Below are positions 15,011 to 62,556 of a DNA stretch of 64,000 nt, piece by piece. Each line of letters begins with the position of its first letter. The first letter of the stretch is position 1. The stretch is from Actinomycetes bacterium (GTDB taxonomy: Bacteria > Actinomycetota > Thermoleophilia > Solirubrobacterales > Solirubrobacteraceae): positions 18,491 through 82,490 of the forward strand of contig JAJYHG010000001.1 in NCBI GenBank assembly GCA_021784895.1, given 5' to 3'. The position numbers and the translations under genes were made by a program. The notes under the pieces are model-generated. The model had not been told where the DNA came from and did not search any database. It worked only from the letters and a program-made list of their open reading frames with translations.

Positions 15011-15073
15011 GGGTTGTGCGGTCTGAGCGGAGATCCTTGCACCGACTGGTGCGCTACCCGCGCACCCCCGCTT

Positions 15074-15385: not shown

Positions 15386-15531
15386 GCCCGGCAGCCTACC
15401 CGTTCCCGCGGCTGTGCGCCTGCTGGCCGAGGCTTGCGCTAATATCCCGAACCGGTTGACTGACTAGTCAATCAGCCGACGATCGTTCGACCACCGGCTG
15501 TTCGTAAAGCCCCCTCGAGGAGAGACCACAC

Positions 15532-18570: not shown

Positions 18571-18633
18571 GCGCCGCAGCCTAGCGGTCCCGTGCGCCGC
18601 CTGTGCGGTGACCGCCTGGGACGGGGCCGCTGA

Positions 18634-35115: not shown

Positions 35116-36597
35116 ATGACGGAGGCAGGCGACGAGCGGCGTCGTGGGGCTGGACCACCTGAGGTCTTGGCGGCTCGGCGCCACAAGCTCGAGTCGCTTC
35201 GTGCTCGGGGCGTGGAACCGTTTCCGCACGGTTATGCCGGAGCCGAGCCGATCGCGTCCGTTCGCGAAGCGCACGCCGGGCTGGGGGTGGGGGAGGAGAC
35301 GATCGTCGCCCACAGGGTTGCAGGGCGGATAACAGCACGCCGCGGGCAGGGCGCCATGGCATTTCTTGACCTCGTGGATCGCTCGGGCAGGATCCAGCTT
35401 CAGGCACGTATCGATGAGCTCGGGACTGACGGTCTTGATCTTCTGACCGGTCTCGATTTGGGCGACCTGATCGGTGTCGAAGGCTTCGCGATAAGCTCGC
35501 GCCGCGGCGAGCTGACATTGCGTCTGACGGCCTTCACGCTCCTGGCCAAGTCGCTCAGGCCGCCGCCCGACAAGCACCACGGTTTGGCCGACACCGAGAC
35601 GCGCCTGCGCCATCGGGAGGCTGACCTGCTTGCAAACGAGGAGACCCGGGCTGTCTTCATCATGCGTGCGCGTATGGTCTCGGCCATCAGGAGCTACCTC
35701 GACTCGGAGGGTTTTATCGAGGTCGAGACCCCGATCCTGCAGCCGCTCTATGGCGGTGCTATGGCACGACCCTTCACCACGCACCACAACGCGCTGGACC
35801 GTGAGTTCTACCTGCGGATCGCCCCGGAGCTCTATCTCAAGCGGCTGCTGGTCGGCGGCCTCGAACGCGTATACGAGATTGGACGTTTATTCCGGAATGA
35901 GGGCATCTCCACCAAGCACAACCCGGAGTTCACTTCGATCGAGTACTACGAAGCCTACGCCGACTACATAAACGTCGCCGACCGCTTCGAGGAGCTGATG
36001 CGTTTCGTCACTGCGGCGATCGGCTATCGCGGGCCGATCGACTTCCAGCGGCCATGGCACCGCGAGACGCTCACGGGCGCGATCGAGCGGCGCACGGGGG
36101 TTGACATCCGGCGCTGTCACGACCGCGGCCGGCTCGCTGGTGCTATGCGTGCAGCTGGACTCGACGTGCCAGAGTCAGACACCTGGCCCCAGCTTGTTGA
36201 TCAGCTCGTCTCCAAGCACGTCGAGCCCACGCTGGTTGAGCCGACCTTCCTGTTCGATTATCCGGTCGAGACTTCGCCGCTTGCCAAGCGCCACCGTTCA
36301 GAGCCGGGCCTGGTGGAGCGGTTCGAGGCGTTCATCGCCGGCATGGAGGTAGCCAACGCGTTCACTGAGCTCAACGACCCTGACGAACAGCGTGCGCGCT
36401 TTGAAGTGCAGCGCGCGCTGGCCGACGGGGGCGACGAAGAGGCCCAGCCCTACGACGCGGCCTACATCGAGGCGCTCGAATATGGCATGCCACCCGCCGG
36501 GGGGATCGGCTTTGGGATCGACCGCATGGCGATGATCCTCACTGGCAGGACCACGATCCGCGAGGTTGTGCTATTCCCGGCTATGAGAGACACTTGA
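35116..36597 (+). CDS. lysS: lysine--tRNA ligase (class II)
   Basis: It has an OB-fold N-terminus and class II motifs (FIEVETPILQ, YLRIAPELYLKRL, GGIGFGIDRMAMIL). Confidence 0.95.
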   Translation: MTEAGDERRRGAGPPEVLAARRHKLESLRARGVEPFPHGYAGAEPIASVREAHAGLGVGEETIVAHRVAGRITARRGQGAMAFLDLVDRSGRIQLQARIDELGTDGLDLLTGLDLGDLIGVEGFAISSRRGELTLRLTAFTLLAKSLRPPPDKHHGLADTETRLRHREADLLANEETRAVFIMRARMVSAIRSYLDSEGFIEVETPILQPLYGGAMARPFTTHHNALDREFYLRIAPELYLKRLLVGGLERVYEIGRLFRNEGISTKHNPEFTSIEYYEAYADYINVADRFEELMRFVTAAIGYRGPIDFQRPWHRETLTGAIERRTGVDIRRCHDRGRLAGAMRAAGLDVPESDTWPQLVDQLVSKHVEPTLVEPTFLFDYPVETSPLAKRHRSEPGLVERFEAFIAGMEVANAFTELNDPDEQRARFEVQRALADGGDEEAQPYDAAYIEALEYGMPPAGGIGFGIDRMAMILTGRTTIREVVLFPAMRDT

Positions 36598-36657
36598 CCC
36601 ACATGCTTAGCTCTGTGCTAAAGGAATCAGCCTCCAGCCGCCGATAGAGGTTGCATC

Positions 36658-37158
36658 GTGCGTACGGTGATGCGGAAAGTCCGTGCAGAGAACGGCCAAG
36701 CACTCGTGGAGTTTGCGTTTGTGCTTCCTTTGCTGCTGCTCTTTCTGTTCGCGATCATAGATTTCGGGATCGCCCTGAACCAGCAGAACGCGGATACCAA
36801 CATCGCCAATATCGCCGTGCGCGACGCGGCTGTGATTGGCACGACCACGAGCCAGACCTGCGGCTCCACGACCGAGACGACGCTCGGGGCGTGGGTGCAG
36901 TGCGAGTCGACCAGCATCGGCGGGCCGGCATTGACCAGCGTTTGCGTGGGCGACATCGCGACGAGCACGTCGCCGGCAAGCGGCACCTACACCTCGGGCG
37001 ACCCGATCGAGGTCAAGGTGACTTCGTCGTTCAGCTGGCTGAAGATCGTCAGCCAGGCGTCGGGAGGTCCGTCCTCATCGATCGCGTCGAGCGCAACCAT
37101 GCGCATGGAGGGCTCGCTCACCGGCACCAACCCATTCCTCAGCCCCACCTGTACGTAG
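36658..37158 (+). CDS. TadE/TadG-like pseudopilin
   Basis: The N-terminus ENGQALVEFAFVLPLLLLFLFAIIDFG is the TadE-like motif. Confidence 0.8.
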   Translation: MRTVMRKVRAENGQALVEFAFVLPLLLLFLFAIIDFGIALNQQNADTNIANIAVRDAAVIGTTTSQTCGSTTETTLGAWVQCESTSIGGPALTSVCVGDIATSTSPASGTYTSGDPIEVKVTSSFSWLKIVSQASGGPSSSIASSATMRMEGSLTGTNPFLSPTCT

Positions 37159-37356
37159 AAGCAAGAGGCAACGGGGGCGGCAATGACCACTTTGTTAGCG
37201 GACGCAGGCAGGGAGCGGCAGGGATCTGGCCCAGGTGCAAGAACTGATGTGACACCGGCGCCGGTGGGTGCGCTCTCTTGTTTTGGATTCATCAGTCAAG
37301 CTCACCGCGGATCACGCCGATAGCCGTAACGAACCCTCACTGGAGCTCGAACTCAA

Positions 37357-38055
37357 ATGGAAGCCCATCGTAACCTTGGTAAGTTCGGTCGCCGCAGCCC
37401 GATGCGTGGCGCGGCCGGTCGCCGGAACGCAGTCCTCATCGCCGTGGTCTCGGCGCTGCTGGCGGCTGCGCTGATCTACCTCTTCGTCTCCGCGTACAAC
37501 AAGAACAAGACTGCGCAGGTGGCACCCACGCAGATTACGGTCTGGGTCGCCGCACACAACATTCCGCAGGGAACGTCTGAGGCTGCGATCGCCGGTGAGG
37601 GTTACTTCAAGCCCAAGGCGGTGCCGAGCACTCAGGTTGTTCCGGGAGCGATCACCGACCCGTCCGAGATCGTGGGTGAGGCGGCGACCACCGACATCGT
37701 GGCAGGACAGCAGATCACCGCCAGTGACTTCACCAAGACGGTCTCCACGCTCTCTGGGCTGCTGAAAGGTGATCAGCGCGCCGTTGCCTTCACGCTGGAT
37801 ACCGAGCACGGCCTCACGAGCTATCTCACCCCAGGCGACACTGTCGATGTCATGGCTGAGAAGGGCAAGACATCCGAGATGCTGATCCAGAACGCGCCGG
37901 TGCTCGAAAATGCGGGCGGGCTGGTGGTCCTGCGGCTCACGGACCGCCAGGCACTGATCGTGACGGCGGCCACGTTGACCTCCAGCCTCTGGCTCGCACT
38001 TCGGCCGTCAATCGGGGCGACCAACTCCGTCAAGCTCTACGCTGTTGCGAGCTGA
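37357..38055 (+). CDS. cpaB: Flp pilus assembly protein CpaB/RcpC (SAF domain)
   Basis: It has an N-terminal TM segment and a SAF-like region (VWVAAHNIPQGT...ITASDF). Position is immediately upstream of tadZ. Confidence 0.8.
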   Translation: MEAHRNLGKFGRRSPMRGAAGRRNAVLIAVVSALLAAALIYLFVSAYNKNKTAQVAPTQITVWVAAHNIPQGTSEAAIAGEGYFKPKAVPSTQVVPGAITDPSEIVGEAATTDIVAGQQITASDFTKTVSTLSGLLKGDQRAVAFTLDTEHGLTSYLTPGDTVDVMAEKGKTSEMLIQNAPVLENAGGLVVLRLTDRQALIVTAATLTSSLWLALRPSIGATNSVKLYAVAS

Positions 38056-38057
38056 CG

Positions 38058-39317
38058 ATGGCACGCCGAATCAACATCGCTCTGGCGCACGACGAGACAG
38101 CGCCGGCTCGTCTCGTTCGCGAGCACATCCCGGATGACTCGGGCATCGAGATGGCGGAGCAGTTCGCCACCTTCGATCTCAATGCCGACGTGATTCTCCG
38201 GATGGACGTCGATGTGCTGCTCGTCGCCTGCCGGGAGGGCTCGCCGGCGGCGCTGGAACTGGTCGGGCTCTGGCACACGGTGCGCAGCAGCTCCCCAGTG
38301 GCGGTGCTCTCACATGGCAGTGACGAGGAGTTTGTCCAAGCTGCGTTCACCGCAGGGGCCGATGACTTCCTCGTTCTGCAGCCAGGACCATACATCCCCG
38401 AACAGGTGGGCCGTGACTTCGAGTTCGCGATCCGTAAGGCTGTGACCCGGACCCGCCACACAGCCGAGCGCGGAAACGAGTCTGGTTCGCTGATCGCGGT
38501 GCTCGGCTCCAAAGGCGGGGTTGGCAAGACGGTCGCTGCAACCAACCTGGGAGCGGCGCTTGCCACCCGCGGGCGGCGCACCGTGATCATCGACTTGGAC
38601 CTCCAGTTTGGCGATGTGGCGCTGGCGCTAGGGCTCACGCCGACGACGACACTGTTTGACCTGGCCGTGTCGGGCGGTAGCCTCGACGCAGACAAGCTCG
38701 ATGACTTCATGTTGCGCCATCCGAGCGGGCTGCGGGTACTGGCTGCGCCGGCACGCCCGGACCAGGCCGTGTCTGTGACCGCACAGATGATCAGCACCAT
38801 CTACGGGGTGCTGCGCGAGGAGTTCGACTTCATCGTGGTGGACACGCCACCGGCGTTCACCGCGGAGGTGATCGCCACCGTGGACGTGGCTACCTGGATC
38901 TGCATGGTCGCGATGTTCGACGCGCTCTCGCTCAAGAACACCCGCCTGGGTCTCGACACGCTCGAGCTCATGGGCCATCCACCAGATCACGTGCGCGTGG
39001 TGCTGAACCGCGCGGGAACGAACGTGGGGATCGCTAGCGCGGAGGCTGTGGAGATCCTCGGCCGCGCGCCGGACCTGCTGGTCCCGAGCGACCGTGAGGT
39101 CCCCGTGTCGATCAACGACGGCATTCCGATCGCACTCTCGGGGAGCCGGTCGGCGGCTGCCGCCGCGATCAGGTCGCTGGCTGACATGTTCCTCGCAAAT
39201 CCGAGCGCTGAACCGTCCGAGCCCAGCAAGGCGTCGCCGACTCCGACCCGGCGACGCGGATGGTTCCGGCGCAAGCGGGCTGTCGCGGGTGCCGCCGAGT
39301 TAGCCCGCGGACGCTGA
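38058..39317 (+). CDS. TadZ/CpaE-like pilus assembly ATPase (atypical receiver + ParA/MinD domain)
   Basis: The N-terminal receiver-like fold lacks the phospho-acceptor Asp (DVLLVAC). The deviant Walker A reads GSKGGVGKTVAATNLG. Confidence 0.85.
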   Translation: MARRINIALAHDETAPARLVREHIPDDSGIEMAEQFATFDLNADVILRMDVDVLLVACREGSPAALELVGLWHTVRSSSPVAVLSHGSDEEFVQAAFTAGADDFLVLQPGPYIPEQVGRDFEFAIRKAVTRTRHTAERGNESGSLIAVLGSKGGVGKTVAATNLGAALATRGRRTVIIDLDLQFGDVALALGLTPTTTLFDLAVSGGSLDADKLDDFMLRHPSGLRVLAAPARPDQAVSVTAQMISTIYGVLREEFDFIVVDTPPAFTAEVIATVDVATWICMVAMFDALSLKNTRLGLDTLELMGHPPDHVRVVLNRAGTNVGIASAEAVEILGRAPDLLVPSDREVPVSINDGIPIALSGSRSAAAAAIRSLADMFLANPSAEPSEPSKASPTPTRRRGWFRRKRAVAGAAELARGR

Positions 39318-39327
39318 GAGGTAGATA

Positions 39328-40755
39328 ATGGAACTGCGCGAACGTCTCGCCGGAACTCAGACACCGGCTGCTGCATCGGATTCGGCCCAGTCCGACTCGC
39401 TGGTCGAGCTCAAGGACCGCATCCACATGGCGATCATCTCCGAGTTGGGCCCACGGCTCTACAACGAGTCGCTGTCGCAGGGCACCCTGCGTGAGGTTGT
39501 GCTCGCCGACGTGCGCCAGCGGCTGGCTCAGGAGCGCGGCCTGGCGACCGCCGATCGCGAGCGGCTCACCCAGGAGATCGCCAACGACACCCTGGGACAC
39601 GGACCGATCGAGCCACTGTTGCAGGACGACACCGTCACCGAGGTGATGGTCAACGGGCCCAGCGATGTGTGGGTTGAGCGCTCGGGGCGGATCGAGAAGA
39701 CTGGTGTGCGCTTCACGGACGAGCACCACCTGCGACGGATCATCAACAAGATCGTCGCGCAGGTGGGCCGCCGTGTTGACGAATCCTCCCCGATGGTGGA
39801 TGCCCGTCTGCCAGATGGCAGCCGCGTCAATGCCGTGCTGCCGCCGCTGTCGCTCAGCGGCCCGCTGCTCACGATCCGTAAGTTCTCGAAGCGGCGCCTT
39901 GATCTGGGCGATCTGGTCGCCATCAACTCGCTCACGGTCGCTGCCAGGGAGTTCCTGGAAGCGGCGATCCGCGCCGAGCTGAACATCCTGATTGCTGGCG
40001 GCACGGGCTCTGGTAAGACGACGTTGCTCAATGCGCTCTCCACCGCCATCCCGGGTGATCAGCGGATCGTCACGATCGAGGACGCGGCCGAGCTGCGGCT
40101 CAACCAGGATCACGTCCTGCGGCTCGAGTCGCGCCCGAAGAACATGGAGGGTCAGGGCGAGATTCCGATCCGCGAGCTGGTCCGTAACTCGCTGCGCATG
40201 CGCCCGGACCGGATCATCGTCGGCGAGGTCCGCGGTGCTGAGACGCTGGACATGTTGCAGGCCATGAACACGGGTCACGACGGCTCGCTCAGCACCTGCC
40301 ACGCCAACACTCCCCGTGACGCGGTGGCGCGCATCGAGAGCATGGTGCTGATGGCCGGGATCGACTTCCCGATCCGCGCCATCAGACAGCAGCTTTCACG
40401 CGCGCTCGACCTGATCGTCCAGATCGAGCGGTTCAACGACGGTTCCCGCAAGATCACGACGATCACCGAGGTACAGCGCATGGAGGGCGACACCGTCACC
40501 CTGCAGGACATCTTCGAATATCGCTTGGACAAGGAGAGCGCCGATGGCCGCGGCCAGCTCGTCTACTCGGGGTTGCGCCCAACCTGCGGCAAGTTCGAGC
40601 GCAACGGTGTTCGGTTGCCCTCTTACATGGACCAGCACAGTTTCGGGGCGGAGCGGATGGCACCGGCTCAGCCGGCTCCGGTTGAGCACCCAACGGCTGG
40701 CGGGTCGGCCTATGCCATCCGTCCCGGGCGTGTAGAGCGGCGGGCTGTCAGGTGA
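39328..40755 (+). CDS. cpaF: CpaF/TadA secretion ATPase
   Basis: Family segments are Walker [36 protein letters not shown] and the His box GHDGSLST. Confidence 0.93.
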
Positions 40756-41708
40756 GTGCCGACTCTGCAGTGGTCGCTGGCGCGGTGAGCGTGGCAGCTG
40801 GCGCGCTCATTGGCGTGGCCGTCTTTGCCCTGGTTGGCCGTCGTGCCACGGCGGCTGACCGAGTGAGTGCCTACGTGACGATGCGCCAAGAGTCCTCGGA
40901 GGCGGGCAAGTCGCTGGTTGAACGGGCTCTCGGTGACCGGCAAGCGCGTAAGATCGTCCGCTCGCCGTTGCTCACACGCCTGCGGGCCGATATGGACGTC
41001 GCCAACCTGGACATCCCGTTGGAGCAGTTGCTTGCGCTGGTGGTGATCGTGACTGTGGTGATCGGCTGGCTGCTCGTTCTGCAGACCAACAGCCCGGTGG
41101 CTGCTCTGCTTGCGCTGCTGGTACCGGTCCTGGCGGTCGGTGGCGTCAGGATGCTAGCGGGGCGCCAGCGGCGTGCCTTCACCGATCAGCTGCCCGACAA
41201 TCTGCAGGTCATAGCATCGGCGATGCGGTCTGGGCAGACCTTCGTAGGCGCGCTCAAGGCAGTGCTCCAGGACGCGCCCGAGCCATCGCAGCGGGAGCTG
41301 CGCCGTGCCGTGCTCGATGAGGAGCTTGGGATCCCGTTGGCAGAAGCGCTGGGCAATGTGACGGAGCGCATGAAGAGCGAGGACTTTAAGCACGTTGCGA
41401 TCGTGGCTTCGCTGCAACGCGAGACCGGCGGTAACACGGCTGAGGTGATCGATTTGGTGGCTGATACGGTTCGTCAGCGGATCGAGATCCGGCGATTGGT
41501 CCGCGGGCTCACTGCGCAGGGGCGGCTCTCGGGGACGGTCCTGACGCTGTTGCCGGTCGCGCTGCTGCTGCTGATTTCGCTGGTAAACCCCGGTTACGTG
41601 CATCCGCTCTTTCACTCGACCGGGGGGCTGGTTGCGCTTGGCGTGGCTCTCGGGCTGATGGCCTGTGGTGGGGTTGTGATCAACAAGATCGTCCAGATCA
41701 AGGTTTGA
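40752..41708 (+). CDS. tadB: TadB (type II secretion system F family) membrane protein
   Basis: T2SSF-like domain. The gene shows a 4-nt start/stop overlap with cpaF. Confidence 0.85.
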   Translation: MSADSAVVAGAVSVAAGALIGVAVFALVGRRATAADRVSAYVTMRQESSEAGKSLVERALGDRQARKIVRSPLLTRLRADMDVANLDIPLEQLLALVVIVTVVIGWLLVLQTNSPVAALLALLVPVLAVGGVRMLAGRQRRAFTDQLPDNLQVIASAMRSGQTFVGALKAVLQDAPEPSQRELRRAVLDEELGIPLAEALGNVTERMKSEDFKHVAIVASLQRETGGNTAEVIDLVADTVRQRIEIRRLVRGLTAQGRLSGTVLTLLPVALLLLISLVNPGYVHPLFHSTGGLVALGVALGLMACGGVVINKIVQIKV

Positions 41709-41712
41709 AGCG

Positions 41713-42648
41713 GTGATGACCTATCTGTATCTAGTGGGTGGCGCGCTCTTCGTTGGCCTCGCGGTGTTGGCGGTGGTGGCCTCATTCAGCGGCACGCGCT
41801 CGTCCGCGCTCGAACGAGTGCGGGCGGTGATCGACACCGGTGCGCTGGCGCGTGGCGCACCCGGTGAACCCGATGTGAGCATCTACCTGGCGCGCGACCG
41901 CCAGGGACTCTTGGCTGGGATCGCCACTCGGCTCGGCGGGCTGTTTTCAGGTCGTCTTACGACGATCAGTGAAAAGGCGATAGGCGAGCAGCTGATGGCG
42001 GCGGGAATGTACACGGTCAGCCCACGTACGATCATCGGGTATCGCATACTGACGACGGTCGTCCTGCCGGTGCTTGCGGTTCTCGTGGTTGGTGTGCACA
42101 GCCTGCTGGACGTGGCAATCGTTGCGCTTGCGGTTTTCATGGGCTGGGTCCTGCCGCTGACCTACGTACAGCGCAAGGCCCGGCTGCGTATCGAGACGAT
42201 CGACCGTGCGCTCCCCGATCTGATCGATCTGCTGACCGTGATGATTGAGGCGGGGCTCTCCTTCCCACAGGCGATGCGGATGTCAGCGGGCCAGTTCGAC
42301 CCTCCGCTGGGTGACGAGCTACGACTAACCCTCCAGGAGCAGACGATGGGCCTGTCGATCGACGAGGCGCTTGGCCACATGGCGGACCGGGCTGACACTC
42401 CGGCCATGCGGTCGTTTGTGCGCGCGATGTCGCAAGGCGAACGGATGGGCATCTCACTGGGCCAGATCATGCGTAACCTGGCCCATGAGATGCGCGCAAG
42501 GCGACGGTCAAGGGCCGAGGAGCGGGCCCAGAAGACACCGGTCCTGATGTTGTTCCCGCTGGTCTTTCTGATCTTTCCGGCGATCTTCATCGTGCTGATG
42601 ACGCCCGCTGTGATCAGCTTGGTGCACAATCTGGGTCACCTCGGCTGA
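41713..42648 (+). CDS. tadC: TadC (type II secretion system F family) membrane protein
   Basis: T2SSF-like domain (LPDLIDLLTVMIEAGLSF). It directly follows tadB. Confidence 0.85.
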   Translation: MMTYLYLVGGALFVGLAVLAVVASFSGTRSSALERVRAVIDTGALARGAPGEPDVSIYLARDRQGLLAGIATRLGGLFSGRLTTISEKAIGEQLMAAGMYTVSPRTIIGYRILTTVVLPVLAVLVVGVHSLLDVAIVALAVFMGWVLPLTYVQRKARLRIETIDRALPDLIDLLTVMIEAGLSFPQAMRMSAGQFDPPLGDELRLTLQEQTMGLSIDEALGHMADRADTPAMRSFVRAMSQGERMGISLGQIMRNLAHEMRARRRSRAEERAQKTPVLMLFPLVFLIFPAIFIVLMTPAVISLVHNLGHLG

Positions 42649-42650
42649 CG

Positions 42651-43844
42651 GTGGCCGGCGGCGGCCGTCGCGGTACGGGCACGCTTATGAGCATCGCGGA
42701 CGATTCTGCCGGAGAGCGCCAGCAACCGGGGGTAAAGCGTCTGGCCACGGCAACCGTCAATGTTCTCGCCGGCCCACTCTCGGTCTCGCTGCTTGGTCTG
42801 TTGCTGGTGCTCGTTCCGCGTGGTCAACGCCTAGCCGGTGACTTCAGCTTTGCATACTGGCACGCCGGACGGCGCGTTCTGGCGGGCGTGAGCCCCTACA
42901 TCTGGACGGCGGCTCAGTTTCGCGAGGGGATGGCGTTTGTCTATCCGGCGCTGTCGGCGGTGATGTTCGCGCCGCTGTCTTTGATCCCGCGGAGCATTGG
43001 CGCGGTGCTGTTCACGTTCGTGTCGATCGCGCTGCTGCCTTTGGCGTTGTGGGTGCTGCGTGTGCGTGACTGGCGTGTGTACGGGATCGCGGCACTGTGG
43101 GAGCCATTCTTTGTTGGCTGGGCAACCGCGAACGAGTCGCTGTATCTGATGTTCGGCTTGGCGTGCGTATGGCGTGTGCGTGACCGGCCGTGGCTGACGG
43201 GCTTGCTGGCTGGCGCTTTGATCTCGCTTGAGCCGCTGTTGTGGCCGCTTGGGCTGTGGCTTGTGGCTACTAGGCGCTGGCGGGCGTCGCTGCATGCGCT
43301 GGCCTGGGGTGTGGCGCTGAACCTCTTTGCGTGGGGGATTGTCGGCTTCGGCCAGATTGGGGCGTATCTGCACGCCAGCGCGACCGACACCGCCGACGCT
43401 TGGCGCGGCGGTTTCGGTGTACCGGCGTCCCTGGCTCACTTTGGCGTAGCGCAGACGGGAGGGTTTGCCGTCATGGCGGTGCTGTGTGCAGGACTTGCCG
43501 CCGGGGTGCTCCACGCTGCGCTTGTGCGCCATGGCGAGATTCCGGCGTTCGTGTTGACTGTGGCGCTCGCTTTGGTGTCCTCGCCGCTTCTGTGGTCGCA
43601 CTATGTGATGCTCGTGCTCGTGCCGCTGGCGATTCTCCGTCCGCGGCTTGACTGGCTGTGGGCGCTGCCAGTGGTGTTCTGGGCAAGCCAGCTACCGGCT
43701 CCGGCGCAGGACTGGCAGATTGTGCTCGACTGGGTCATTATGGCCGTGATTCTCTTGCCGTTGGCGATGGCATCACCGGCGCATCACGTCCGGGTGAGCG
43801 GATCCCTGCAGGCGGGCGCGGAGCCGACTCCGACTGCCTGGTAG
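42651..43844 (+). CDS. GT87/DUF2029-like GT-C membrane glycosyltransferase, paralog 1
   Basis: Polytopic membrane protein with the first-loop motif GDFSFAYWHAGRRVLAGVSPY. A GTG start lies 2 nt after the tadC stop, with an alternative ATG at 42687. It is closely related to paralogs 2 and 3. Confidence 0.75.
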   Translation: MAGGGRRGTGTLMSIADDSAGERQQPGVKRLATATVNVLAGPLSVSLLGLLLVLVPRGQRLAGDFSFAYWHAGRRVLAGVSPYIWTAAQFREGMAFVYPALSAVMFAPLSLIPRSIGAVLFTFVSIALLPLALWVLRVRDWRVYGIAALWEPFFVGWATANESLYLMFGLACVWRVRDRPWLTGLLAGALISLEPLLWPLGLWLVATRRWRASLHALAWGVALNLFAWGIVGFGQIGAYLHASATDTADAWRGGFGVPASLAHFGVAQTGGFAVMAVLCAGLAAGVLHAALVRHGEIPAFVLTVALALVSSPLLWSHYVMLVLVPLAILRPRLDWLWALPVVFWASQLPAPAQDWQIVLDWVIMAVILLPLAMASPAHHVRVSGSLQAGAEPTPTAW

Positions 43845-43884
43845 CCGGCGCCGACTGGGGGCTCACCCCGGTTACCTAACGAGA

Positions 43885-43912
43885 GCGGGCCAGCTCCGAA
43901 GATCTGGCCCGC
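43885..43912. terminator. 9-bp perfect hairpin (gcgggccag N10 ctggcccgc) between convergent GT87 paralog 1 and flp
   Basis: Read directly from the sequence. It is positioned 41 nt after the paralog 1 stop and 48 nt after the flp stop, so it is plausibly a bidirectional terminator. The U-tract is weak. Confidence 0.5.
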
Positions 43913-43959
43913 TACGTTCAGTTACGCCAGCGGCTCGGCCCTTGTCATGGCCACGGCCG

Positions 43960-44142
43960 CTAGATGCTGTTCGCGACTGTGGAAAGCACGTCGCTCACCT
44001 TGCCGCCGAGGAATGTCAGCGCGACGATCGCGATGATCGCAATCAGCGCGAGGATCAGGGCGTACTCGGTAAGCCCCTGCCCCTCCTCGTCGTCCATCAG
44101 ACGAGCAAGCGCGAGCTTCATGTTGATGAAGAGCTTCAGCAT
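43960..44142 (-). CDS. flp: Flp family type IVb pilin
   Basis: The sequence is MLKLFINMKLALARLMDDEEG/QGLTEYALILALIAIIAIVALTFLGGKVSDVLSTVANSI. It contains the Flp processing motif G/XXXXEY followed by a hydrophobic helix. Alternative starts are at 44121 and 44163. Confidence 0.85.
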   Translation of the reverse strand: MLKLFINMKLALARLMDDEEGQGLTEYALILALIAIIAIVALTFLGGKVSDVLSTVANSI

Positions 44143-44152
44143 GTGTTTGTCA

Positions 44153-44161
44153 CCCCCCCCC
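44153..44161 (-). repeat. G9 homopolymer (C9 on plus strand) 11-19 nt upstream of the flp ATG at 44142 (or inside codons 1-4 if ATG 44163 is used)
   Basis: Read directly (cacccccccc|c) and cross-checked against the ORF translation MGGGDKHM. It is the longest G/C homopolymer I noticed in the window. Confidence 0.85.
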
Positions 44162-44482
44162 ATGAGATCAGGTGGACGCCTCGTTCCTTGTGGCGTGAGC
44201 CACTCGCTGGAAGCGTGCCATCGCTTCCACGGCACCACATTCAAGTGCCGCACAAACCCATCGGTGCGATCTCGTAGACACTTTAGTCTCGCAGCGAAGC
44301 CCGCGTCAAACAATCAGTCCGAGAGCAGCGCCGCCGCTCCGGTGGCGGTGAAGTCGACAAGAGCCTTTGGCACGGTGCGCGAGTATATAGAGGCTGGTGT
44401 ACCATGGTCTGGGGGCTGGACGCATATACGGGGCTGCAACAGAACTTGCATGCACGGCTTGGCAGGTTGACGAGATAGTCAC

Positions 44483-46057
44483 ATGACCACCGACGCGCTG
44501 GATGATCATCTCGCTGGACAGGAGCGGACCGAGCTGCCGGAAACCTGTTCCGATGCGGCAGCGCAACGCGGGCTAGCCGGCTTGCGGGACTGGCTGACAG
44601 CGCGAGCTCTGTTTGTCGTCGCCGTTTGCGCGGTGATCATCATCAGCTTGCTTGGGATACCAACGCATCTGGCACAGGACGGCTGGCTGGCTCTGATCGC
44701 TGGGCGGCTTGTGGCCTCGCACGGGGTTCCCACGCACGACTACTTCGCCTGGATGACTTACGGGCAGCGCTGGGTTGATCAGCAGTGGCTCGCCCAGTGG
44801 GTCATGTTTGAACTCGTGCGCCTGGGCGGGCTCCAGCTGATGACAGTTTTCTATGTGCTCGTGACCGGCGTGGCGTTTGGTGGCGCGGTGGCAGCGGGCC
44901 GCAGTCTTGGTGGTGAAGATCTGGATGTGCTGAAAATCACGCTTCCCGGGGTCTTCTTCTACCTGGTGACTGCGGTTTCGATCCGCACACAGGGGTTCGC
45001 CTATCCGCTCTTTGTTGCGACGCTCTGGCTTCTCGCCTCTGATTGGCGATCTCGTGAGCGCGGTCAGCGGGTATATCTGGTGTTGCCGATACTTGTGCTC
45101 TGGGGAAACTTGCACGGTTCCGCGACGATGGGTGCGGGCCTCGGCGGCCTCTACGGGCTTCTCCTTCTGGCTCGTGGTTTGCGTGACCGCGGTCTGGCTG
45201 CGCTACGCGATGCCCGTGCCTGGGCCTTCGTGCTCATCTCGCCGTTAACCTTATTGGCGACACCGTACGGGATGGGCATGGTCCACTATTATCGGGTCAC
45301 CCTATTGAACCCGCAGTTCAGTAGGCTGGTCACGGAGTGGAAACCGATTACGACGGTTCCGATCCTGGCGGTGCCCCTGTTTGTGATGATTGCCGGCGCG
45401 ATCCTCGCTGTGCTCGTGACGGTGGTTCGAGCCCGCTCGAGTGCCGCCGCCGCGCCGCCGTTGTATGACGTGTTGGTGCTGCTGATCCTCGCCGCGGGTG
45501 CGGTGATCGCAGTCCGTAACGTCACCTGGTTCGGGCTGGCATTGGTCATACTGCTTCCCCACGTCGTCACGCAGATGCGGGCTGGGCGAGCCGCGCCGCT
45601 GCGCCGCTCGCGTAGAAATTTCCTCGCTGCTGGAGCAACGCTGGTGCTGTGTGGGCTGGTTACACTCGTGGTGCTCATGCGGCCAAGCGGCTGGTTCACC
45701 AGTACCTATCCACGGCGGGCGATAACCACACTTAGCACGCTGATTGCGCAGGATCCCCACGCCAAGATACTCGCCGACGTGCGCTATGCCGACTGGCTGA
45801 TCTGGGAACGCCCGGCGCTGTTCAGCGGCCGAGTTGCCTACGACACGAGCTTTGAGTTGTTGAGCAAGCGTCAGCTCGAGGCGATCGGAGACCTCGCTGC
45901 CAACACCCGCAACGCTCGCACGACGGTCGCCAGCTATCCGATCTGGATGCTATATCCCGGTAACCGTGCGGTCAACCGGAAGCTGCTGCGCCGGCCAGGG
46001 GCTCGCCTGATCAGTAAGAGCCGGAAGGTGATCATCGCTACCTACCACATGTCGTAG
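44483..46057 (+). CDS. large polytopic membrane protein with C-terminal extracytoplasmic domain, uncharacterised (possible GT-C-like glycosyltransferase/polymerase)
   Basis: 524 aa with about 11 or more hydrophobic segments. A first-loop motif reads DGWLALIAGRLV..GVPTHDYFAW...QRWVDQQWLAQ. The C-terminal domain of about 110 aa is soluble. Confidence 0.6.
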   Translation: MTTDALDDHLAGQERTELPETCSDAAAQRGLAGLRDWLTARALFVVAVCAVIIISLLGIPTHLAQDGWLALIAGRLVASHGVPTHDYFAWMTYGQRWVDQQWLAQWVMFELVRLGGLQLMTVFYVLVTGVAFGGAVAAGRSLGGEDLDVLKITLPGVFFYLVTAVSIRTQGFAYPLFVATLWLLASDWRSRERGQRVYLVLPILVLWGNLHGSATMGAGLGGLYGLLLLARGLRDRGLAALRDARAWAFVLISPLTLLATPYGMGMVHYYRVTLLNPQFSRLVTEWKPITTVPILAVPLFVMIAGAILAVLVTVVRARSSAAAAPPLYDVLVLLILAAGAVIAVRNVTWFGLALVILLPHVVTQMRAGRAAPLRRSRRNFLAAGATLVLCGLVTLVVLMRPSGWFTSTYPRRAITTLSTLIAQDPHAKILADVRYADWLIWERPALFSGRVAYDTSFELLSKRQLEAIGDLAANTRNARTTVASYPIWMLYPGNRAVNRKLLRRPGARLISKSRKVIIATYHMS

Positions 46058-46064
46058 CAAGTCC

Positions 46065-47210
46065 ATGGGCACGACGCCTCTGACCGCTCGCGGGCGCTTG
46101 GGCTGGTGGCAGGGTCGGCAGCGTCTAGCCATGGCGCTCGTCAACGTGATCGCCGGCCCGTTCGCGGTCATGGCGCTTGGCCTGCTGGTGGCCTGGGCAC
46201 TGCGTAGCCGGGTGACTGCGTTTGACTTCCAACACGCCTACTGGCAATCGGGTCACCGCGTGCTCGTGGGCGCGAGTCCGTATGCCTGGTCTGTGGCTCA
46301 GTTTCACCTCAGGTTTGTCTTCGTTTATCCGGCGCTGTCGGCGGTGATGTTCGCGCCGCTCTCGCTGCTCCCGCGGAGCTTCGGTGTGGTGCTGTTCACG
46401 TTCGTGTCGGTCGCGCTGCTGCCAGCGGCGTTGTGGGTGCTGCGGGTGCGTGACTGGCGTGTGTACGGGATGGCGACGCTGTGGGAGCCATTCTTCTACG
46501 GCTGGCTCACTGCGAATCAGTCGCTGTATCTGATGTTCGGCCTAGCGTGCGTGTGGCGTGTGCGTGACCGGCCGCGGCTGGCGGGCTTGCTGGCGGGCGC
46601 TTTGATGTCGCTTGAGCCGCTTCTGTGGCCGCTTGGGCTGTGGCTTTTGGCCACCAGGCGCTGGCGGGCGTCACTGTATGCGCTGGCGTCGGGTTTGGTG
46701 CTGAACCTGGTGGCGTGGGGAATCGTCGGCTTCGGGCAGATCGGGGCTTACCTGCACGCGAGCGCCACTCTCACAGGGGATGCTTGGCGCACAGGCTTTG
46801 GTATACCCGCGTTGGTGGGGCGGTTAGGGGTCGGGTGGCATGTTGGTCTGGCGGCGCTGGTTCTGGTGTCGACTGCTCTTGCGGTCGCGCTGATTCGGTC
46901 TGGCTGGCGTCGCCGCAGCGATCATCACGCGCTGGTGCTGACGGTCGCGCTTGCGCTGGTGTCGTCACCGCTTCTGTGGTCGCATTACGTCATGCTCCTG
47001 TTGGTGCCGCTGGCGCTTTTGCGTCCGCGGCTTGACTGGCCGTGGGCGGTGCCGGTCGTGTTTTGGGCGAGCCAGCTGCCGACCGTGCCGCAGGACTGGC
47101 AACTGGTCGTCGACTGGGTTGGCATCGTTGTCATGTTGGTGGCTGTAGCCAGAGCGGGGCGCCGTATATCGAGTCGCGGTCTGATGCCTGCTGTGGCGGC
47201 GAGCGGATGA
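46065..47210 (+). CDS. GT87/DUF2029-like GT-C membrane glycosyltransferase, paralog 2
   Basis: The motif is FDFQHAYWQSGHRVLVGASPY. It shares long identical nucleotide runs with paralogs 1 and 3. Confidence 0.75.
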   Translation: MGTTPLTARGRLGWWQGRQRLAMALVNVIAGPFAVMALGLLVAWALRSRVTAFDFQHAYWQSGHRVLVGASPYAWSVAQFHLRFVFVYPALSAVMFAPLSLLPRSFGVVLFTFVSVALLPAALWVLRVRDWRVYGMATLWEPFFYGWLTANQSLYLMFGLACVWRVRDRPRLAGLLAGALMSLEPLLWPLGLWLLATRRWRASLYALASGLVLNLVAWGIVGFGQIGAYLHASATLTGDAWRTGFGIPALVGRLGVGWHVGLAALVLVSTALAVALIRSGWRRRSDHHALVLTVALALVSSPLLWSHYVMLLLVPLALLRPRLDWPWAVPVVFWASQLPTVPQDWQLVVDWVGIVVMLVAVARAGRRISSRGLMPAVAASG

Positions 47211-48334
47211 GCACGACACCTGGGATTGCGCTCGAGCACACGGCCGAGCGGTCGGGTAGGCGGCGGCATCTGGACGCCGTCTGCAATGTCTTGGCCGGCC
47301 CGATCGCGATCCTGTGGGTGTTGTACTTGGTGGTGGCCAACCTCCGGGCTGCGAACCCTGCCTTTGACTTCCAGCATGCCTACTGGCACGCTGGTCACCG
47401 TGTTCTGCTCGGTCAGAGTCCCTACCTCTGGACCGCGGCCCAGTTTCGCGAAAAGCTCGCTTTCGTTTATCCGGCGCTGTCGGCGGTGATGTTCGCGCCG
47501 CTGTCTTTGATCCCGCGGAGTACTGGAGCGGTCCTGTTCACGTTCGTGTCGGTGGCGCTCCTGCCTTTGACGCTGTGGGTGCTGCGCGTGCGTGACTGGC
47601 GTGTGTACGGGATCGCGGCACTGTGGCAGCCGTTCTATGACGGCTGGATGACCGCGAACGAGTCGATCTATCTGATGTTTGGCTTGGCTTGCGTGTGGCG
47701 CGTTCGCGACCGGAGCTGGATGGCCGGACTCTTGACCGCCGTACTGATCTCGCTCAAGCCGCTGTTGTGGCCGCTTGGGCTGTGGCTTCTGGCCACCAGG
47801 CGCTGGCGGGCGTCACTGTATACGCTGGCTTGGGCTGTGGTGCTGAACCTGGTGGCGTGGGGCATCGTCGGCTTCGGGCAGATTGGGGCTTACCTGCATG
47901 CGAGCGCAGTCTCCACCGCCGACGCTTGGCGCGGGGGTTTCGGGCTACCCGCGTTCCTGGGTCGGCTTGGCCTGGATTGGCATAGCGGATTGGTGGTGCT
48001 CCTGGTCGTTTCCGCGGTCGTTGTGGCTGCTCTGATTCGCTCCGGTCGCCACGGGCATGGCGATCACTATGCCCTGGTGCTGATGGTGGCGCTCGCGCTG
48101 GTGTCATCGCCGCAGCTCTCGGCCCACTACATGCTGCTCCTGCTGGTGCCGCTGGCGCTTTTGCGTCCGCGGCTTGACTGGCTGTGGGCGGTGCCAGTCC
48201 TGCTGTGGGTCTCGTTACCCACTGAACCGGTCAGCGGCTGGCAGCAGGTTTGCGCCTGGGTCTTGGTGGGCGGCAGCTGCCTGGCCCTTGTCCGGCAGAC
48301 AGCGAGACCGACCACGCTGGAGCCGGCGTTGTGA
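47207..48334 (+). CDS. GT87/DUF2029-like GT-C membrane glycosyltransferase, paralog 3
   Basis: The motif is FDFQHAYWHAGHRVLLGQSPY. The ATG at 47207 overlaps the paralog 2 stop (ATGA). Confidence 0.75.
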   Translation: MSTTPGIALEHTAERSGRRRHLDAVCNVLAGPIAILWVLYLVVANLRAANPAFDFQHAYWHAGHRVLLGQSPYLWTAAQFREKLAFVYPALSAVMFAPLSLIPRSTGAVLFTFVSVALLPLTLWVLRVRDWRVYGIAALWQPFYDGWMTANESIYLMFGLACVWRVRDRSWMAGLLTAVLISLKPLLWPLGLWLLATRRWRASLYTLAWAVVLNLVAWGIVGFGQIGAYLHASAVSTADAWRGGFGLPAFLGRLGLDWHSGLVVLLVVSAVVVAALIRSGRHGHGDHYALVLMVALALVSSPQLSAHYMLLLLVPLALLRPRLDWLWAVPVLLWVSLPTEPVSGWQQVCAWVLVGGSCLALVRQTARPTTLEPAL

Positions 48335-49485
48335 GCGCCGCAGCTGCAAACTCTCAGCGCAGCCGCCCAACGTTCGGGGAGCGCCGCGCGGGGCTGTTCG
48401 GCGCCGCCCAGCGGGGCCTGTTTGCCTTCAGCCCGCTGGTGGTCACGGCGGCCCTGCTCGTGGTGACGCTCAAAGCTCACGCGCTCGCGTTTGACTTCCA
48501 GTCGGCCTACTACCCGGCGGCCACCCGTCTCCTGCAGGGCGCCAGTCCCTATGCCGTCACAGCGAGGCAGTTGGCCGTCGGTACGGCGTTCGTTTATCCC
48601 GCGTTCTCAGCCATCGTGTTCATTCCCTTTGCGCTGGTCCCTAGCGGCGTTGCCCAGGCCCTGGACACGGCGCTGTGCCTAGCGTGCGTCCCAGCGACCC
48701 TCTGGACGCTGAACGTGCGGGACTGGCGGCTCTACGGGCTGGCTATGCTGTGGTCGCCGGTCTTTGACGGCTGGCAGACCGGAAACGTGACGCTTCCGCT
48801 GGTGCTGGGTGTGGCGCTGACCTGGCGGTACCGTGACCGGCCGCTCGTGGCTGGCCTGTTGACGGCGGCCGCTATCAGCATCAAGCCGTTCGTGTGGCCA
48901 CTCGGGCTCTGGCTGCTGGCCACCCGGCGCTATCGGGCAGCTGGCTGGGCGCTCGTCTGGGGCGTGGTGCTCAACCTCGTGGCGTGGTCGGTCGTGGGCT
49001 TTAGTTCGTTTGGTACCTATCTCCGGCTCTCCGCACGGGTCACCAGCATGCTCTGGCGTGGCGGCTACGCAGTCCTCGCGGTCGCTGCTCAGCTTGGCCT
49101 TGGACAAAATGTGGGCTATGGCATGCTGCTCGGGTTGGCGGTCTTGGCGGCCGCGGCCGTTTTTTACCTCGGGTTCCTCAGGAGTGCCGACCAGAGTGCG
49201 CTGACAGTTGCGGTGCTGCTGATGCTGATCGCGTCGCCGCTTGTGTGGAACCACTATTTCTGCCTGCTGCTGGTGCCACTTGCGCTCGGCCGGCCGCGCC
49301 TCAGCGTCGCGTGGATTGTTGGTCTGGTCATGTGGCCACTGCCGCCGCGGCTGCCGATTCACGCTTGGGAGCAGGCAATCGCCTGGGGCGCTGCGCTAGT
49401 CGTAACGGCCGTTGCCCTCGGTGGGGCTCGTGGCCACAAGGAGTCTGAGAATGGCCGTCAGCGCTGGCTTACGCATCCTGCCTGA
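48331..49485 (+). CDS. GT87/DUF2029-like GT-C membrane glycosyltransferase, paralog 4 (more divergent)
   Basis: The motif is FDFQSAYYPAATRLLQGASPY. The GTG at 48331 overlaps the paralog 3 stop (GTGA). Confidence 0.7.
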   Translation: MSAAAANSQRSRPTFGERRAGLFGAAQRGLFAFSPLVVTAALLVVTLKAHALAFDFQSAYYPAATRLLQGASPYAVTARQLAVGTAFVYPAFSAIVFIPFALVPSGVAQALDTALCLACVPATLWTLNVRDWRLYGLAMLWSPVFDGWQTGNVTLPLVLGVALTWRYRDRPLVAGLLTAAAISIKPFVWPLGLWLLATRRYRAAGWALVWGVVLNLVAWSVVGFSSFGTYLRLSARVTSMLWRGGYAVLAVAAQLGLGQNVGYGMLLGLAVLAAAAVFYLGFLRSADQSALTVAVLLMLIASPLVWNHYFCLLLVPLALGRPRLSVAWIVGLVMWPLPPRLPIHAWEQAIAWGAALVVTAVALGGARGHKESENGRQRWLTHPA

Positions 49486-50641
49486 TGGTGCCCGCGGACG
49501 TCGGCGGGCGCTAGAGCACGTGTTGCTCGGCGCGCTGCCGGCTGCCCTCACGCTCTGGGTTGGCATATCTGCGGCAGCGCACCACTCGGTGGCCGAGGAC
49601 TTCTCCCTCGTCTACTACCCAGCGGCCCACCTGCTGCTCGTCGGCCAGAGTCCTTATGGAGCGGCCAGCGCCCACGTTACCAGTGGATCTGCCTTTGTAT
49701 ACCCGGCGTTGGCGGCAGTTTTGCTGGCGCCGTTCGCTCTGCTCCCGATGGGCCTTGCCTACCACCTCTTTGTGCTGATCTGCCTGGCGATGGTGCCGGG
49801 TACCCTATGGGCCACCGGGGTTCGCGACTGGCGTGTGTACGGTGCCGTTCTGCTGTGGCTCCCGATCGTTGTCGGCTGGCAGGGGGAGAACATCTCGGTG
49901 CCGCTGATGTATTCTGCCGCGCTCACTTGGCGTTACCGAGAGAGCCCAGTAGTCGCAGGTCTGGTCGTTGCCGTAGCATGCAGCGTGAAGCCTGTCGTCT
50001 GGCCCCTTGGCCTGTGGCTAATCGCGACCCGGCGGTTTGCGGCTGCGTTCTGGTCTGTCGCTTGGGGTGTTGTCGTCAACCTGCTGGCCTGGGTGATCGT
50101 CGGCCCGCGGGAGCTGGTGATCTGGCTGCGGCTTGCCGGGGCAGACGCCTCAGTGCTCTGGCGTGGTGGTTACGGTCTCATGGCGGTCTCGCACCACCTG
50201 GGTCTGGGTCGGAATGCGGGCGAGGGTCTTTTGCTGCTCGGCACCGCTGTGCTCGCGGTCGCGACGGTTTGGCGTGGCCTGGATGGCCATCACGATCGTG
50301 AGGCATTCGGGCTCGCGGTCGGGCTTGTGCTGATAGCCTCCCCGCTCGTCTGGATCCACTACTTTGTGTTGCTGGCCGCTGCGCTCGCGGTTCTGCGGCC
50401 GAAATTCGACGCAGTGTGGGTCGTGCCCGTCGCCTTATGGTTGTTGCCGCCTGCGACTCAGGTTCGCAGCTGGCAGGTCGGTCTTGCCTGGGTGGTTGTG
50501 ACAGCCTGCCTTTGGATTGCGTTGCGATCGCCCGAACGGGCCGGGTGGCCGGACGGCTGCGATGCCCAGAACCAACTGGTGGCTCGCTCACGCAGCCTTG
50601 ACCCAGACGCACGCGCGGAGGCGGCCGGCACCGAGTGTTAG
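49451..50641 (+). CDS. GT87/DUF2029-like GT-C membrane glycosyltransferase, paralog 5 (more divergent)
   Basis: The motif is EDFSLVYYPAAHLLLVGQSPY. The chosen start is ATG 49451; the ORF is open from 49412 and overlaps the paralog 4 end. Confidence 0.7.
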   Translation: MAVSAGLRILPDGARGRRRALEHVLLGALPAALTLWVGISAAAHHSVAEDFSLVYYPAAHLLLVGQSPYGAASAHVTSGSAFVYPALAAVLLAPFALLPMGLAYHLFVLICLAMVPGTLWATGVRDWRVYGAVLLWLPIVVGWQGENISVPLMYSAALTWRYRESPVVAGLVVAVACSVKPVVWPLGLWLIATRRFAAAFWSVAWGVVVNLLAWVIVGPRELVIWLRLAGADASVLWRGGYGLMAVSHHLGLGRNAGEGLLLLGTAVLAVATVWRGLDGHHDREAFGLAVGLVLIASPLVWIHYFVLLAAALAVLRPKFDAVWVVPVALWLLPPATQVRSWQVGLAWVVVTACLWIALRSPERAGWPDGCDAQNQLVARSRSLDPDARAEAAGTEC

Positions 50642-62483: not shown

Positions 62484-62556
62484 GCCCGCTTGGCGCAACT
62501 GGTAGCGCACCTCACTTGTAATGAGGCGGTTGTCGGTTCGAGTCCGACAGCGGGCT
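62484..62556 (+). tRNA. tRNA-Thr (anticodon UGU)
   Basis: I hand-folded the cloverleaf. The acceptor stem is GCCCGCT/AGCGGGC, the D stem GCGC/GCGC, and the anticodon stem CCTCA/TGAGG with loop CTTGTAA. The T stem is GTCGG/CCGAC with loop TTCGAGT, and the discriminator is T. No CCA is encoded. Confidence 0.92.

Follow-up and report, generated by a model that had tools for sequence, protein, structure and literature searches.

Tad/Flp pili are widespread organelles of adhesion and colonisation. Their pilin, Flp, is reportedly modified, and we know of no description of dedicated modifying enzymes encoded in a tad locus. We analysed a stretch of 64,000 nucleotides (the window) from the metagenome-assembled genome of a soil actinobacterium (family Solirubrobacteraceae, class Thermoleophilia), in which the genes for such a pilus stand together with genes for predicted membrane glycosyltransferases. 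Between the housekeeping genes lysS and clpC lie, in this order, a tadE-like gene, cpaB, tadZ, cpaF, tadB, tadC, a gene of the glycosyltransferase family GT87 (paralog 1), a hairpin, the pilin gene flp on the minus strand, an intergenic region, the gene for a 524-amino-acid membrane protein that we call X524, and GT87 paralogs 2 to 5. GT-C-fold enzymes of two kinds, X524 and the GT87 proteins, are tightly packed in operons, and their association with tad and flp is both specific and lasting. Window coordinates are used throughout; L-numbers denote loci of relatives and P-numbers denote distant X524 homologue proteins.

The Tad components, all encoded on the plus strand, scored above the Pfam cut-offs. 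They are a TadE-like minor pilin of 166 amino acids (36658–37158; PF07811, E = 3e-12), CpaB/RcpC (37357–38055; PF16976 and SAF domain matches), the ParA/MinD-like ATPase TadZ (38058–39317; AAA_31, CbiA and ParA matches), the secretion ATPase CpaF/TadA (39328–40755; PF00437, E = 8e-69), and the platform proteins TadB (40752–41708) and TadC (41713–42648), both with PF00482. An earlier note on this DNA had described these genes as co-oriented with gaps of no more than 10 nt or with overlaps. This description holds except between tadE and cpaB, where the gap is 198 nt and there is no earlier start in the cpaB frame. The tadC stop codon TGA (42646–42648) is followed by the two nucleotides CG and then by GTG at 42651, the start of paralog 1, exactly as the note had read it; an alternative start, ATG at 42687, would leave a 38-nt gap after tadC. 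The note had also regarded the tad operon as fused to the GT87 array. Paralog 1 can indeed be taken as the last tad cistron, whereas paralogs 2 to 5 belong to a separate unit behind X524, divergent from flp.

The five GT87 genes are on the plus strand (paralog 1, 42651–43844; paralog 2, 46065–47210; paralog 3, 47207–48334; paralog 4, 48331–49485; paralog 5, 49451–50641). Their suspected family membership was borne out by Pfam: every one matched PF09594 at 68.9–79.7 bits (cut-off 25) over model positions 1–237 of 237, with E-values of 7e-19, 5e-19, 3.6e-20, 3.7e-22 and 6e-19 for paralogs 1 to 5. Structure comparison agreed. The AlphaFold2 model of paralog 1, the one GT87 gene modelled (pLDDT 88.6), had its best PDB match in PimE (9dm5/9dm7, TM-score 0.61–0.68, E = 1.6e-6), followed by GPI mannosyltransferase I and ALG mannosyltransferases. 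A 6-sequence GT87 profile matched PimE as well (9dm5, E = 4.6e-7), in an alignment that begins after the first-loop motif described below, and a deeper 41-sequence profile had no PDB match. With the NCBIfam PimE equivalog model NF009915 the best score was 30.2 bits (paralog 4, E = 1.7e-7) against a cut-off of 413. The paralogs are therefore members of the family, not PimE orthologues.

A motif in the first loop, said to be shared by all five proteins, is conserved, with a spacing different from that proposed: DF-x3-Y[WY]-x8-G-x-SPY. Its residues D64, Y69 and G79 were invariant in 41 GT87 family members, and D64 lies at the start of the first-loop helix. In PimE the catalytic aspartate of the first outer loop is D58. 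The junctions that chain X524 to paralogs 2 to 5 were found as described, namely a 7-nt gap, an ATGA overlap at 47207 between paralogs 2 and 3, a GTGA overlap at 48331 between paralogs 3 and 4, and a 35-nt overlap between paralogs 4 and 5. The start codon of paralog 5 (ATG at 49451) has AAGGAG just upstream. In the membrane-protein genes GC at the third codon position (0.74–0.80) exceeded that at the first, which exceeded that at the second, supporting the plus-strand frames.

Paralogs 1 to 3 share 63–66% amino-acid identity and 78–84% nucleotide identity over 300-nt blocks, and are a triplication specific to this lineage. Three shared blocks (42832–43138, 46216–46522 and 47358–47664) had an identity above what the overall divergence suggests, which would be consistent with recent duplication or gene conversion. 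In a tree, paralogs 4 and 5 each clustered with orthologues of relatives, so that three or more old GT87 subtypes exist in such loci, paralog 4 belonging to an older subtype and paralog 5 to a third. A GT87 gene between tadC and flp was found only in the nearest relative, L082 (X524 78% identical); the other close relatives with the layout lysS-tad-flp-X524-GT87-clpC are without it. The tadC–GT87 fusion is thus recent and local, a duplication and not the original architecture. In L029 a GT87 gene lies on the reverse strand in the tadC–flp interval. With 0–6 copies per locus, the GT87 genes are the variable, accessory part of the module.

The flp gene (43960–44142, minus strand) encodes a 60-amino-acid prepilin with the processing motif G/QGLTEY and a mature pilin of 39 amino acids with the tail GGKVSDVLSTVANSI. 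Its match to PF04964 (27.6 bits) was below the cut-off of 32.2, yet covered the full model, and the protein combines the G/XXXXEY motif with the short hydrophobic mature peptide of a Flp prepilin. No homologue of a prepilin peptidase (TadV/CpaA, family A24) was detected in the 64-kb window; such genes are present in some related loci (L046, L083), so the peptidase is probably encoded elsewhere in the genome. The hairpin and the antisense flp gene inside the GT87 array were both found where the note had placed them. The 115-nt spacer between the convergent paralog 1 and flp (43845–43959) had a folding energy of −59 kcal/mol (z = −3.66) and contains a perfect 10-bp hairpin (43884–43913; AGCGGGCCAG...CTGGCCCGCT), which is probably a bidirectional terminator.

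On its other side, flp is separated from the divergent X524 gene by an intergenic region of 340 nt (44143–44482), for which leader alignments were made. Leader blocks of flp were compared in L001, L002, L004, L006, L007 and L010–L016. The 5′ leader (44143–44300, minus strand) has a conserved CTCAAG and, about 14 nt further on, CACCGATG; the ribosome-binding site, GGGGGGAGGTGA, is unusually strong, and a sigma-70-like match was seen on the minus strand at 44309–44280. We considered a structured RNA leader upstream of flp and rejected it: the RNAalifold covariation term for the leader was about 0 despite the conserved blocks, and Rfam had no match in the region. The leader looks like a conserved promoter/operator with a ribosome-binding site rather than a structured RNA.

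X524 (44483–46057, plus strand) had been left by the earlier note as an unknown bystander. It is instead predicted to have a GT-C fold, and within the module it is better conserved than any other element and has the tightest linkage to flp. Sequence searches with X524 found nothing in Pfam at E ≤ 0.1, nothing in NCBIfam and nothing in the PDB at E ≤ 10, so that it represents a new, unannotated sequence family. Its hhalign alignment with GT87 had a probability of 0.3, that is, no profile similarity. The AlphaFold2 model is polytopic (pLDDT 85.9, pTM 0.86), and the top 16 Foldseek matches in the PDB were all GT-C enzymes (TMq 0.30–0.53, E down to 4e-5). The structural matches were STT3, ArnT, AftA, ALG12, AglB, AftB, PglB, Pmt1/4 and EmbC. 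Because these TM-scores are moderate, we assigned X524 to the GT-C fold and to no specific subfamily; as modelled, it is a GT-C-fold enzyme.

Conservation in X524 points the same way. The pair Q65-D66 was invariant in 38 sequences, down to 50% identity, in which about 80 positions were invariant. With an outward topology as inferred for this loop, the pair lies at the start of a helix (65–80) in the first outer loop. Thus X524 has both an outer-loop helix after the first transmembrane helix and a conserved acidic first-loop residue, as GT-C enzymes do. It ends in a C-terminal alpha/beta domain of about 120 amino acids. At E ≤ 1e-30 its family comprised 536 cluster representatives (clustering at 50% identity), and at E ≤ 1e-10 there were 4212. 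One distant member, P0285 (L084–L086), is fused to an N-terminal GtrA/DPMS transmembrane domain and has a GT2 gene alongside; these loci also encode a second unannotated membrane protein, of 518 amino acids, and the short contigs concerned carry no tad genes. The GtrA fusion and the adjacent GT2 gene imply a polyprenyl-phosphate-sugar donor for X524. Three-component systems with polyprenyl-phosphate-monosaccharide donors bear this signature.

These observations also bear on whether X524 is an enzyme at all. It might be a structural or chaperone-like Tad component that kept the GT-C fold and lost catalysis, with the GT87 genes as unrelated passengers. Such a role would suit a protein that is more conserved than GT87 across the same loci (58–67% against 45–56% identity) and that persists without GT87 in 11 of the 46 loci surveyed below. 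Against it stand the invariant polar residues at the place of GT-C active sites, including D66 at the start of the first outer-loop helix, and the GtrA-fused homologues beside GT2, which argue for an active transferase of lipid-linked sugars. We regard a non-catalytic X524 as very improbable.

A scan of one genome per species of the Genome Taxonomy Database (GTDB) with an X524 profile gave 72 loci, which were annotated with the window proteins and with hidden Markov models (HMMs). Relatives with related loci belonged to the Solirubrobacterales, Conexibacteraceae and Gaiellaceae, all of the class Thermoleophilia. Linkage was counted in 46 loci, each from a Thermoleophilia species, that had 8 kb or more of sequence on either side. 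A distance of no more than 10 kb from X524 was found for cpaF in 41 of these, for GT87 in 35 and for both in 33; GT87 was absent from 11. When we looked up GT87 homologues, eight of eight lay in loci with tad, antisense flp, X524 and GT87. Across loci there were 1–6 GT87 and 1–4 flp genes. A Flp open reading frame (ORF) was found in 37 loci; in 29 of them no gene separated flp from X524, and the median gap was 293 nt, in divergent as well as co-directional arrangement. A glycosyltransferase gene stands beside the major pilin gene in the window, too, where the two are divergent with 340 nt between them. The X524 gene has a 4-nt overlap with the first GT87 gene in L001, L002, L004, L006 and L008. 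Cultured carriers are Conexibacter sp. S30A1 (NZ_CP097127), with an X524 of 67% identity and a single GT87 gene, and Paraconexibacter antarcticus, with X524 and no nearby GT87.

Such linkage might also have no functional meaning. The synteny could be inherited in a lineage rich in GT-C genes, tad and the glycosyltransferase genes each having entered the interval from lysS to clpC. The 20 loci with an X524 of 47% or higher identity to that of the window all have one layout inside a housekeeping block (tilS-hpt-ftsH-folP-coaX-dus-greA-lysS ... clpC-radA-disA), as this explanation would have it, and because they all share the lysS...clpC layout we counted them as one event. Additional GT-C genes nearby fit it as well, and so do X524 homologues without tad genes nearby (L048, L062, L075, P0285 and P0300).

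The more distant loci argue otherwise. In the 26 loci with an X524 less than 47% identical, lysS and clpC were absent nearby. Even so, cpaF lay within 10 kb of X524 in 21 of the 26 by tblastn, or in 23 of 28 when the loci were split by HMM score, in at least eight gene orders and orientations. Among these arrangements were tad on the opposite strand, either downstream or upstream, X524-flp-cpaB in one direction, and DUF192-X524 beside flp. In L083, X524 lies between flp and tadE/tadG, and GT2, DUF2079 and GT87 genes lie 4–8 kb from X524. By a rough estimate, which was not computed, chance would put a tad locus in a 20-kb window of a 3–5 Mb genome in about 1% of cases. In a converse test, 80 other, metagenomic Tad loci were collected with a CpaF profile (48–78% identity); X524 was found in 4 of them and GT87 in 1. 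It follows that the association is peculiar to a single Tad lineage and general neither to Tad loci nor to high-GC contigs. The start/stop overlaps within the X524–GT87 unit and the 2-nt tadC–GT87 junction are likewise at odds with chance neighbourhood. We consider inherited synteny an improbable explanation. The co-conservation that the earlier note had named as support for a functional link was seen: the glycosyltransferase genes stay with tad in many gene orders across Thermoleophilia and are rare at other Tad loci. Since the neighbourhood survives so many rearrangements, the pilus probably has its own sugar-adding machinery.

Upstream in the window the housekeeping block, which is conserved in actinobacteria, reads tilS, hpt, ftsH, folP, coaX, dus, a minus-strand ORF with weak resemblance to GT87, greA and lysS. 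Then follow the tad and glycosyltransferase genes, and next clpC, radA, disA and carD. The weak ORF (33179–34426, 415 amino acids), the sixth GT87-like one, lies between dus and greA and has 22% identity to paralog 1; its PF09594 score was 21.1 bits, under the cut-off of 25, and no homologue was found in any relative locus retrieved. Many relatives have extra GT-C-like genes on the opposite strand between clpC and radA, with PMT_2 or Mannosyl_trans2 matches (for example L001 17563–18678, L002 16232–18638, with an acyltransferase too, and L006 15119–17601). The window has none there, and no homology was found between the sixth ORF and these PMT_2-like genes of the relatives. GT-C genes thus accumulate in this part of the chromosome.

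The GC content of the tad and glycosyltransferase region (36000–50000) was 62–66%, against 68–72% in the upstream part (1–34000), and GC at third codon positions was 0.73–0.84 against 0.85–0.93. We asked on this ground whether the region is a horizontally acquired island, for which the evidence was weak. The downstream housekeeping genes are similar in GC to the region, and no tRNA or integrase gene flanks it; the sole tRNA gene in the window is tRNA-Thr at 62484–62556. A gene 33 kb upstream (1704–4037, minus strand) encodes a 777-amino-acid PAS-GAF-GGDEF-EAL protein for turnover of cyclic di-GMP. Tad pili are often under cyclic di-GMP control.

Some further genes recurred at the relatives' loci. 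A DUF192 (PF02643) gene lies directly upstream of X524 in L051, L065, L068, L070, L077 and L078 (at about 9.1–9.9 kb), and a fusion of DUF192 to a response regulator follows the GT87 genes or the tad operon in L038, L040, L044, L071 and L073. To our knowledge DUF192 has no known function, and a literature search on it returned nothing relevant; from its position it may be another part of this Tad variant. In L079, three tandem DUF2079 genes of about 500 amino acids each (14005–18591) lie between X524/GT87 and flp/tadE, a putative further tandem array of GT-C-like proteins at a Tad locus. TadB and TadC are separate proteins of about 315 amino acids each in the window and its close relatives. 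In distant loci (L029, L038, L040, L051, L055, L061, L071, L077 and L083) TadB has about 620–750 amino acids, and in L083 it has VWA domains fused to the T2SSF domain.

How might the two kinds of enzyme act? We give about an even chance to the reading that this Tad/Flp locus has its own glycosylation module for the outer face of the membrane: X524 would initiate a glycan on a Tad pilin and the GT87 enzymes would elongate it. X524 would move a first sugar from a polyprenyl-phosphate-sugar donor to serine or threonine of the pilin while this still resides in the membrane, before assembly. The GT87 enzymes would then lengthen the chain with mannose from polyprenyl-phosphate-mannose, both transfer steps taking place at the membrane's outer face. 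The three old GT87 subtypes, together with lineage-specific duplication (1–6 copies), would make the length and linkage of the glycan variable between strains. The genes for synthesis of the donor (by Ppm1/GT2) and for its flipping would have to lie elsewhere in the genome. Genes for donor synthesis and GtrA-like genes were found in linkage only at distant homologues (GT2 in L083, and P0285), and as the window is without a GT2 or GtrA gene, the donors are presumably made elsewhere.

The acceptor would be Flp, at its exposed C-terminal tail, or the TadE-like minor pilin with its many serines and threonines, or the two together. In the 39-residue mature Flp the last 15 or so residues would face outward, and tail positions 29, 33, 34 and 38 were serine or threonine in 68–83% of 65 distinct pilins. 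The Ser/Thr residues of this tail had been proposed earlier as the acceptor, a proposal that our data neither supported nor excluded. N-glycosylation was considered and rejected: STT3 was the top structural match of X524, but hardly any of the Flp pilins has an N-x-S/T sequon. In the window, serine and threonine make up 38% of the extracellular residues (58–166) of the TadE-like protein. The median Ser/Thr content of this part was 28% at X524-linked loci (n = 30; L009–L080) and 17% at X524-negative Tad loci (n = 27), over an all-protein background of 11% in the loci (Mann-Whitney p = 4e-9, with no correction for phylogeny). Because it is unusually rich in Ser/Thr at X524-linked loci, the TadE-like pilin is as good a candidate acceptor as Flp. 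The identity of the acceptor is the weakest step, with the Flp tail, the TadE-like pilin and a lipoglycan as candidates.

The last of these candidates belongs to a different explanation, in which X524 and the GT87 enzymes build a mannan or lipoglycan anchored to lipid or wall (lipomannan-like), or glycosylate other envelope proteins, and the pilins stay unmodified. The linkage would then arise from co-inheritance or co-regulation with the pilus for adhesion or biofilm formation, as with a pilus and a holdfast, or from a need of the pilus for a locally modified envelope. AftA, AftB, EmbC and ArnT among the structural matches of X524 are in keeping with such a role. For protein O-mannose one elongase is known (PMC12757957), fewer than the three GT87 subtypes conserved here. 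Flp tails have no distinctive Ser/Thr content, and further GT-C genes cluster in the same chromosomal neighbourhood. Conversely, no genes for a priming glycosyltransferase, a flippase or ABC exporter, or a ligase accompany the module in the window. X524 abuts flp specifically (29 of 37 loci) rather than lying just anywhere in the locus, and in L083 it is placed with tadE and tadG. Its occurrence without GT87 in 11 of 46 loci fits single-step protein modification better than polymer synthesis. We think a lipoglycan plausible as the product but less probable than pilin glycosylation, which we prefer.

Several points weigh against pilin glycosylation nevertheless. Mycobacteria are established to make lipomannan and lipoarabinomannan with the same combination, several GT87-type enzymes and large GT-C enzymes, which counts for a lipoglycan. 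The X524 family is large and not always Tad-linked (P0285, P0300), and in 5 of the 46 loci no cpaF was found up to 10 kb from X524. The lineage has many GT-C genes, as the sixth ORF (33179–34426) and the PMT_2-like genes of relatives between clpC and radA illustrate. The Ser/Thr fraction of the Flp tail was 0.16–0.21 in X524-positive and X524-negative metagenomic Tad loci alike, and the TadE contrast ignores phylogeny and composition. The 64-kb window has no GT2 donor-synthesis gene, GtrA or prepilin peptidase gene. The glycosylation of the pilin is itself something that we infer. Finally, the structure of the C. crescentus Tad pilus shows no glycan density (PMC10710030), so that Tad pili in general do not need glycosylation.

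With these points in mind, we put forward tentatively, at somewhat less than even chance, the more specific proposal that X524 is a new GT-C family, that its members in Thermoleophilia are dedicated O-glycosyltransferases of Tad pilins (Flp, the TadE-like protein or both), and that the GT87 enzymes of the locus elongate a strain-variable mannose glycan. If true, a machinery dedicated to glycosylation would be described for the first time for Tad/Flp pili, as would a pilin-directed GT-C system for a Gram-positive lineage. With an initiator and elongases that are both of the GT-C type, conserved and encoded in the locus, the module would constitute a testable system of Tad pilin glycosylation. 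A large family (hundreds of 50%-identity clusters) without a Pfam or NCBIfam model would thereby gain its first functional lead. The variation in copy number (GT87 1–6, flp 1–4) points to a surface structure under diversifying selection, exerted for instance by phages or grazers. Experiments are feasible because cultured strains, Conexibacter sp. S30A1 and Paraconexibacter antarcticus, carry the module.

The earlier note knew of no described Tad locus with a dedicated GT-C array, and our literature search for GT87/DUF2029 or any GT-C enzyme linked to Tad/Flp pili likewise found no paper. Related systems exist for other pili. The GT-C enzyme TfpW glycosylates the Pseudomonas aeruginosa pilin with D-Araf and requires a GtrA-like protein (bioRxiv 10.1101/2020.04.19.049825). 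As in the window, the gene for TfpW (group IV strains, type IVa pili) lies beside the major pilin gene. Loop 1 and the C-terminal domain of TfpW are periplasmic and its donor is a polyprenyl-phosphate-monosaccharide; its dependence on a GtrA-like protein recalls the GtrA fusion in the X524 family. The differences are that TfpW acts on a type IVa filament of globular pilin in a Gram-negative host, in place of a 39-amino-acid Flp, and that by itself it polymerises D-Araf, whereas the present locus has separate GT87 elongases and no sugar-biosynthesis genes. We set X524 beside TfpW by description.

Among archaea, AglB, one of the structural matches of X524, is likewise a GT-C enzyme that modifies subunits of type IV filaments, both type IV pilins and archaellins. 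It differs in that it transfers preassembled glycans to N-x-S/T sequons, which are nearly absent from these Flps, and is not encoded in the pilus locus. In the three-component Gtr systems (GtrA/GtrB/GtrC; CsbB/GtcA/YfhO) a GT2 enzyme makes a lipid-linked sugar, GtrA flips it and a GT-C enzyme transfers it, which resembles the GtrA fusion and GT2 gene of L084–L086. The window holds only GT-C parts, however, and the acceptors known for Gtr systems are O-antigen or teichoic acids, not pilins.

The mycobacterial pathway for phosphatidylinositol mannosides, lipomannan and lipoarabinomannan (PimE, MptA/B/C, Emb/Aft) shares with the present module the combination of several GT87-type with large GT-C enzymes, and by sequence as well as by structure the paralogs match PimE best. 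They are only about 20% identical, though, and the PimE equivalog cut-off was missed by far (30 against 413 bits); no genes for a phosphatidylinositol mannoside anchor lie nearby, and the lipomannan and lipoarabinomannan genes are not known to be linked to a pilus locus. In actinobacterial protein O-mannosylation, Pmt (GT39) initiates and PimE/GT87 elongates (PMC12757957). There, too, a large outer-face GT-C enzyme initiates on serine or threonine and GT87 elongates from polyprenyl-phosphate-mannose (PMC12757957), and Pmt1 and Pmt4 are among the structural matches of X524. Unlike Pmt, X524 has no PMT family match in Pfam. Pmt is a general, unlinked housekeeping enzyme that acts on Sec/Tat substrates together with one GT87 enzyme, whereas the present module is embedded in the locus of one machine, with up to six GT87 genes. 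The module would thus extend the actinobacterial scheme of Pmt plus GT87 mannosylation to a machine-specific version. Its components are of known kinds, namely GT-C enzymes, glycosyltransferases encoded beside a pilin gene, and a scheme of initiation with subsequent elongation by GT87; their combination, the Tad context and the X524 family are new.

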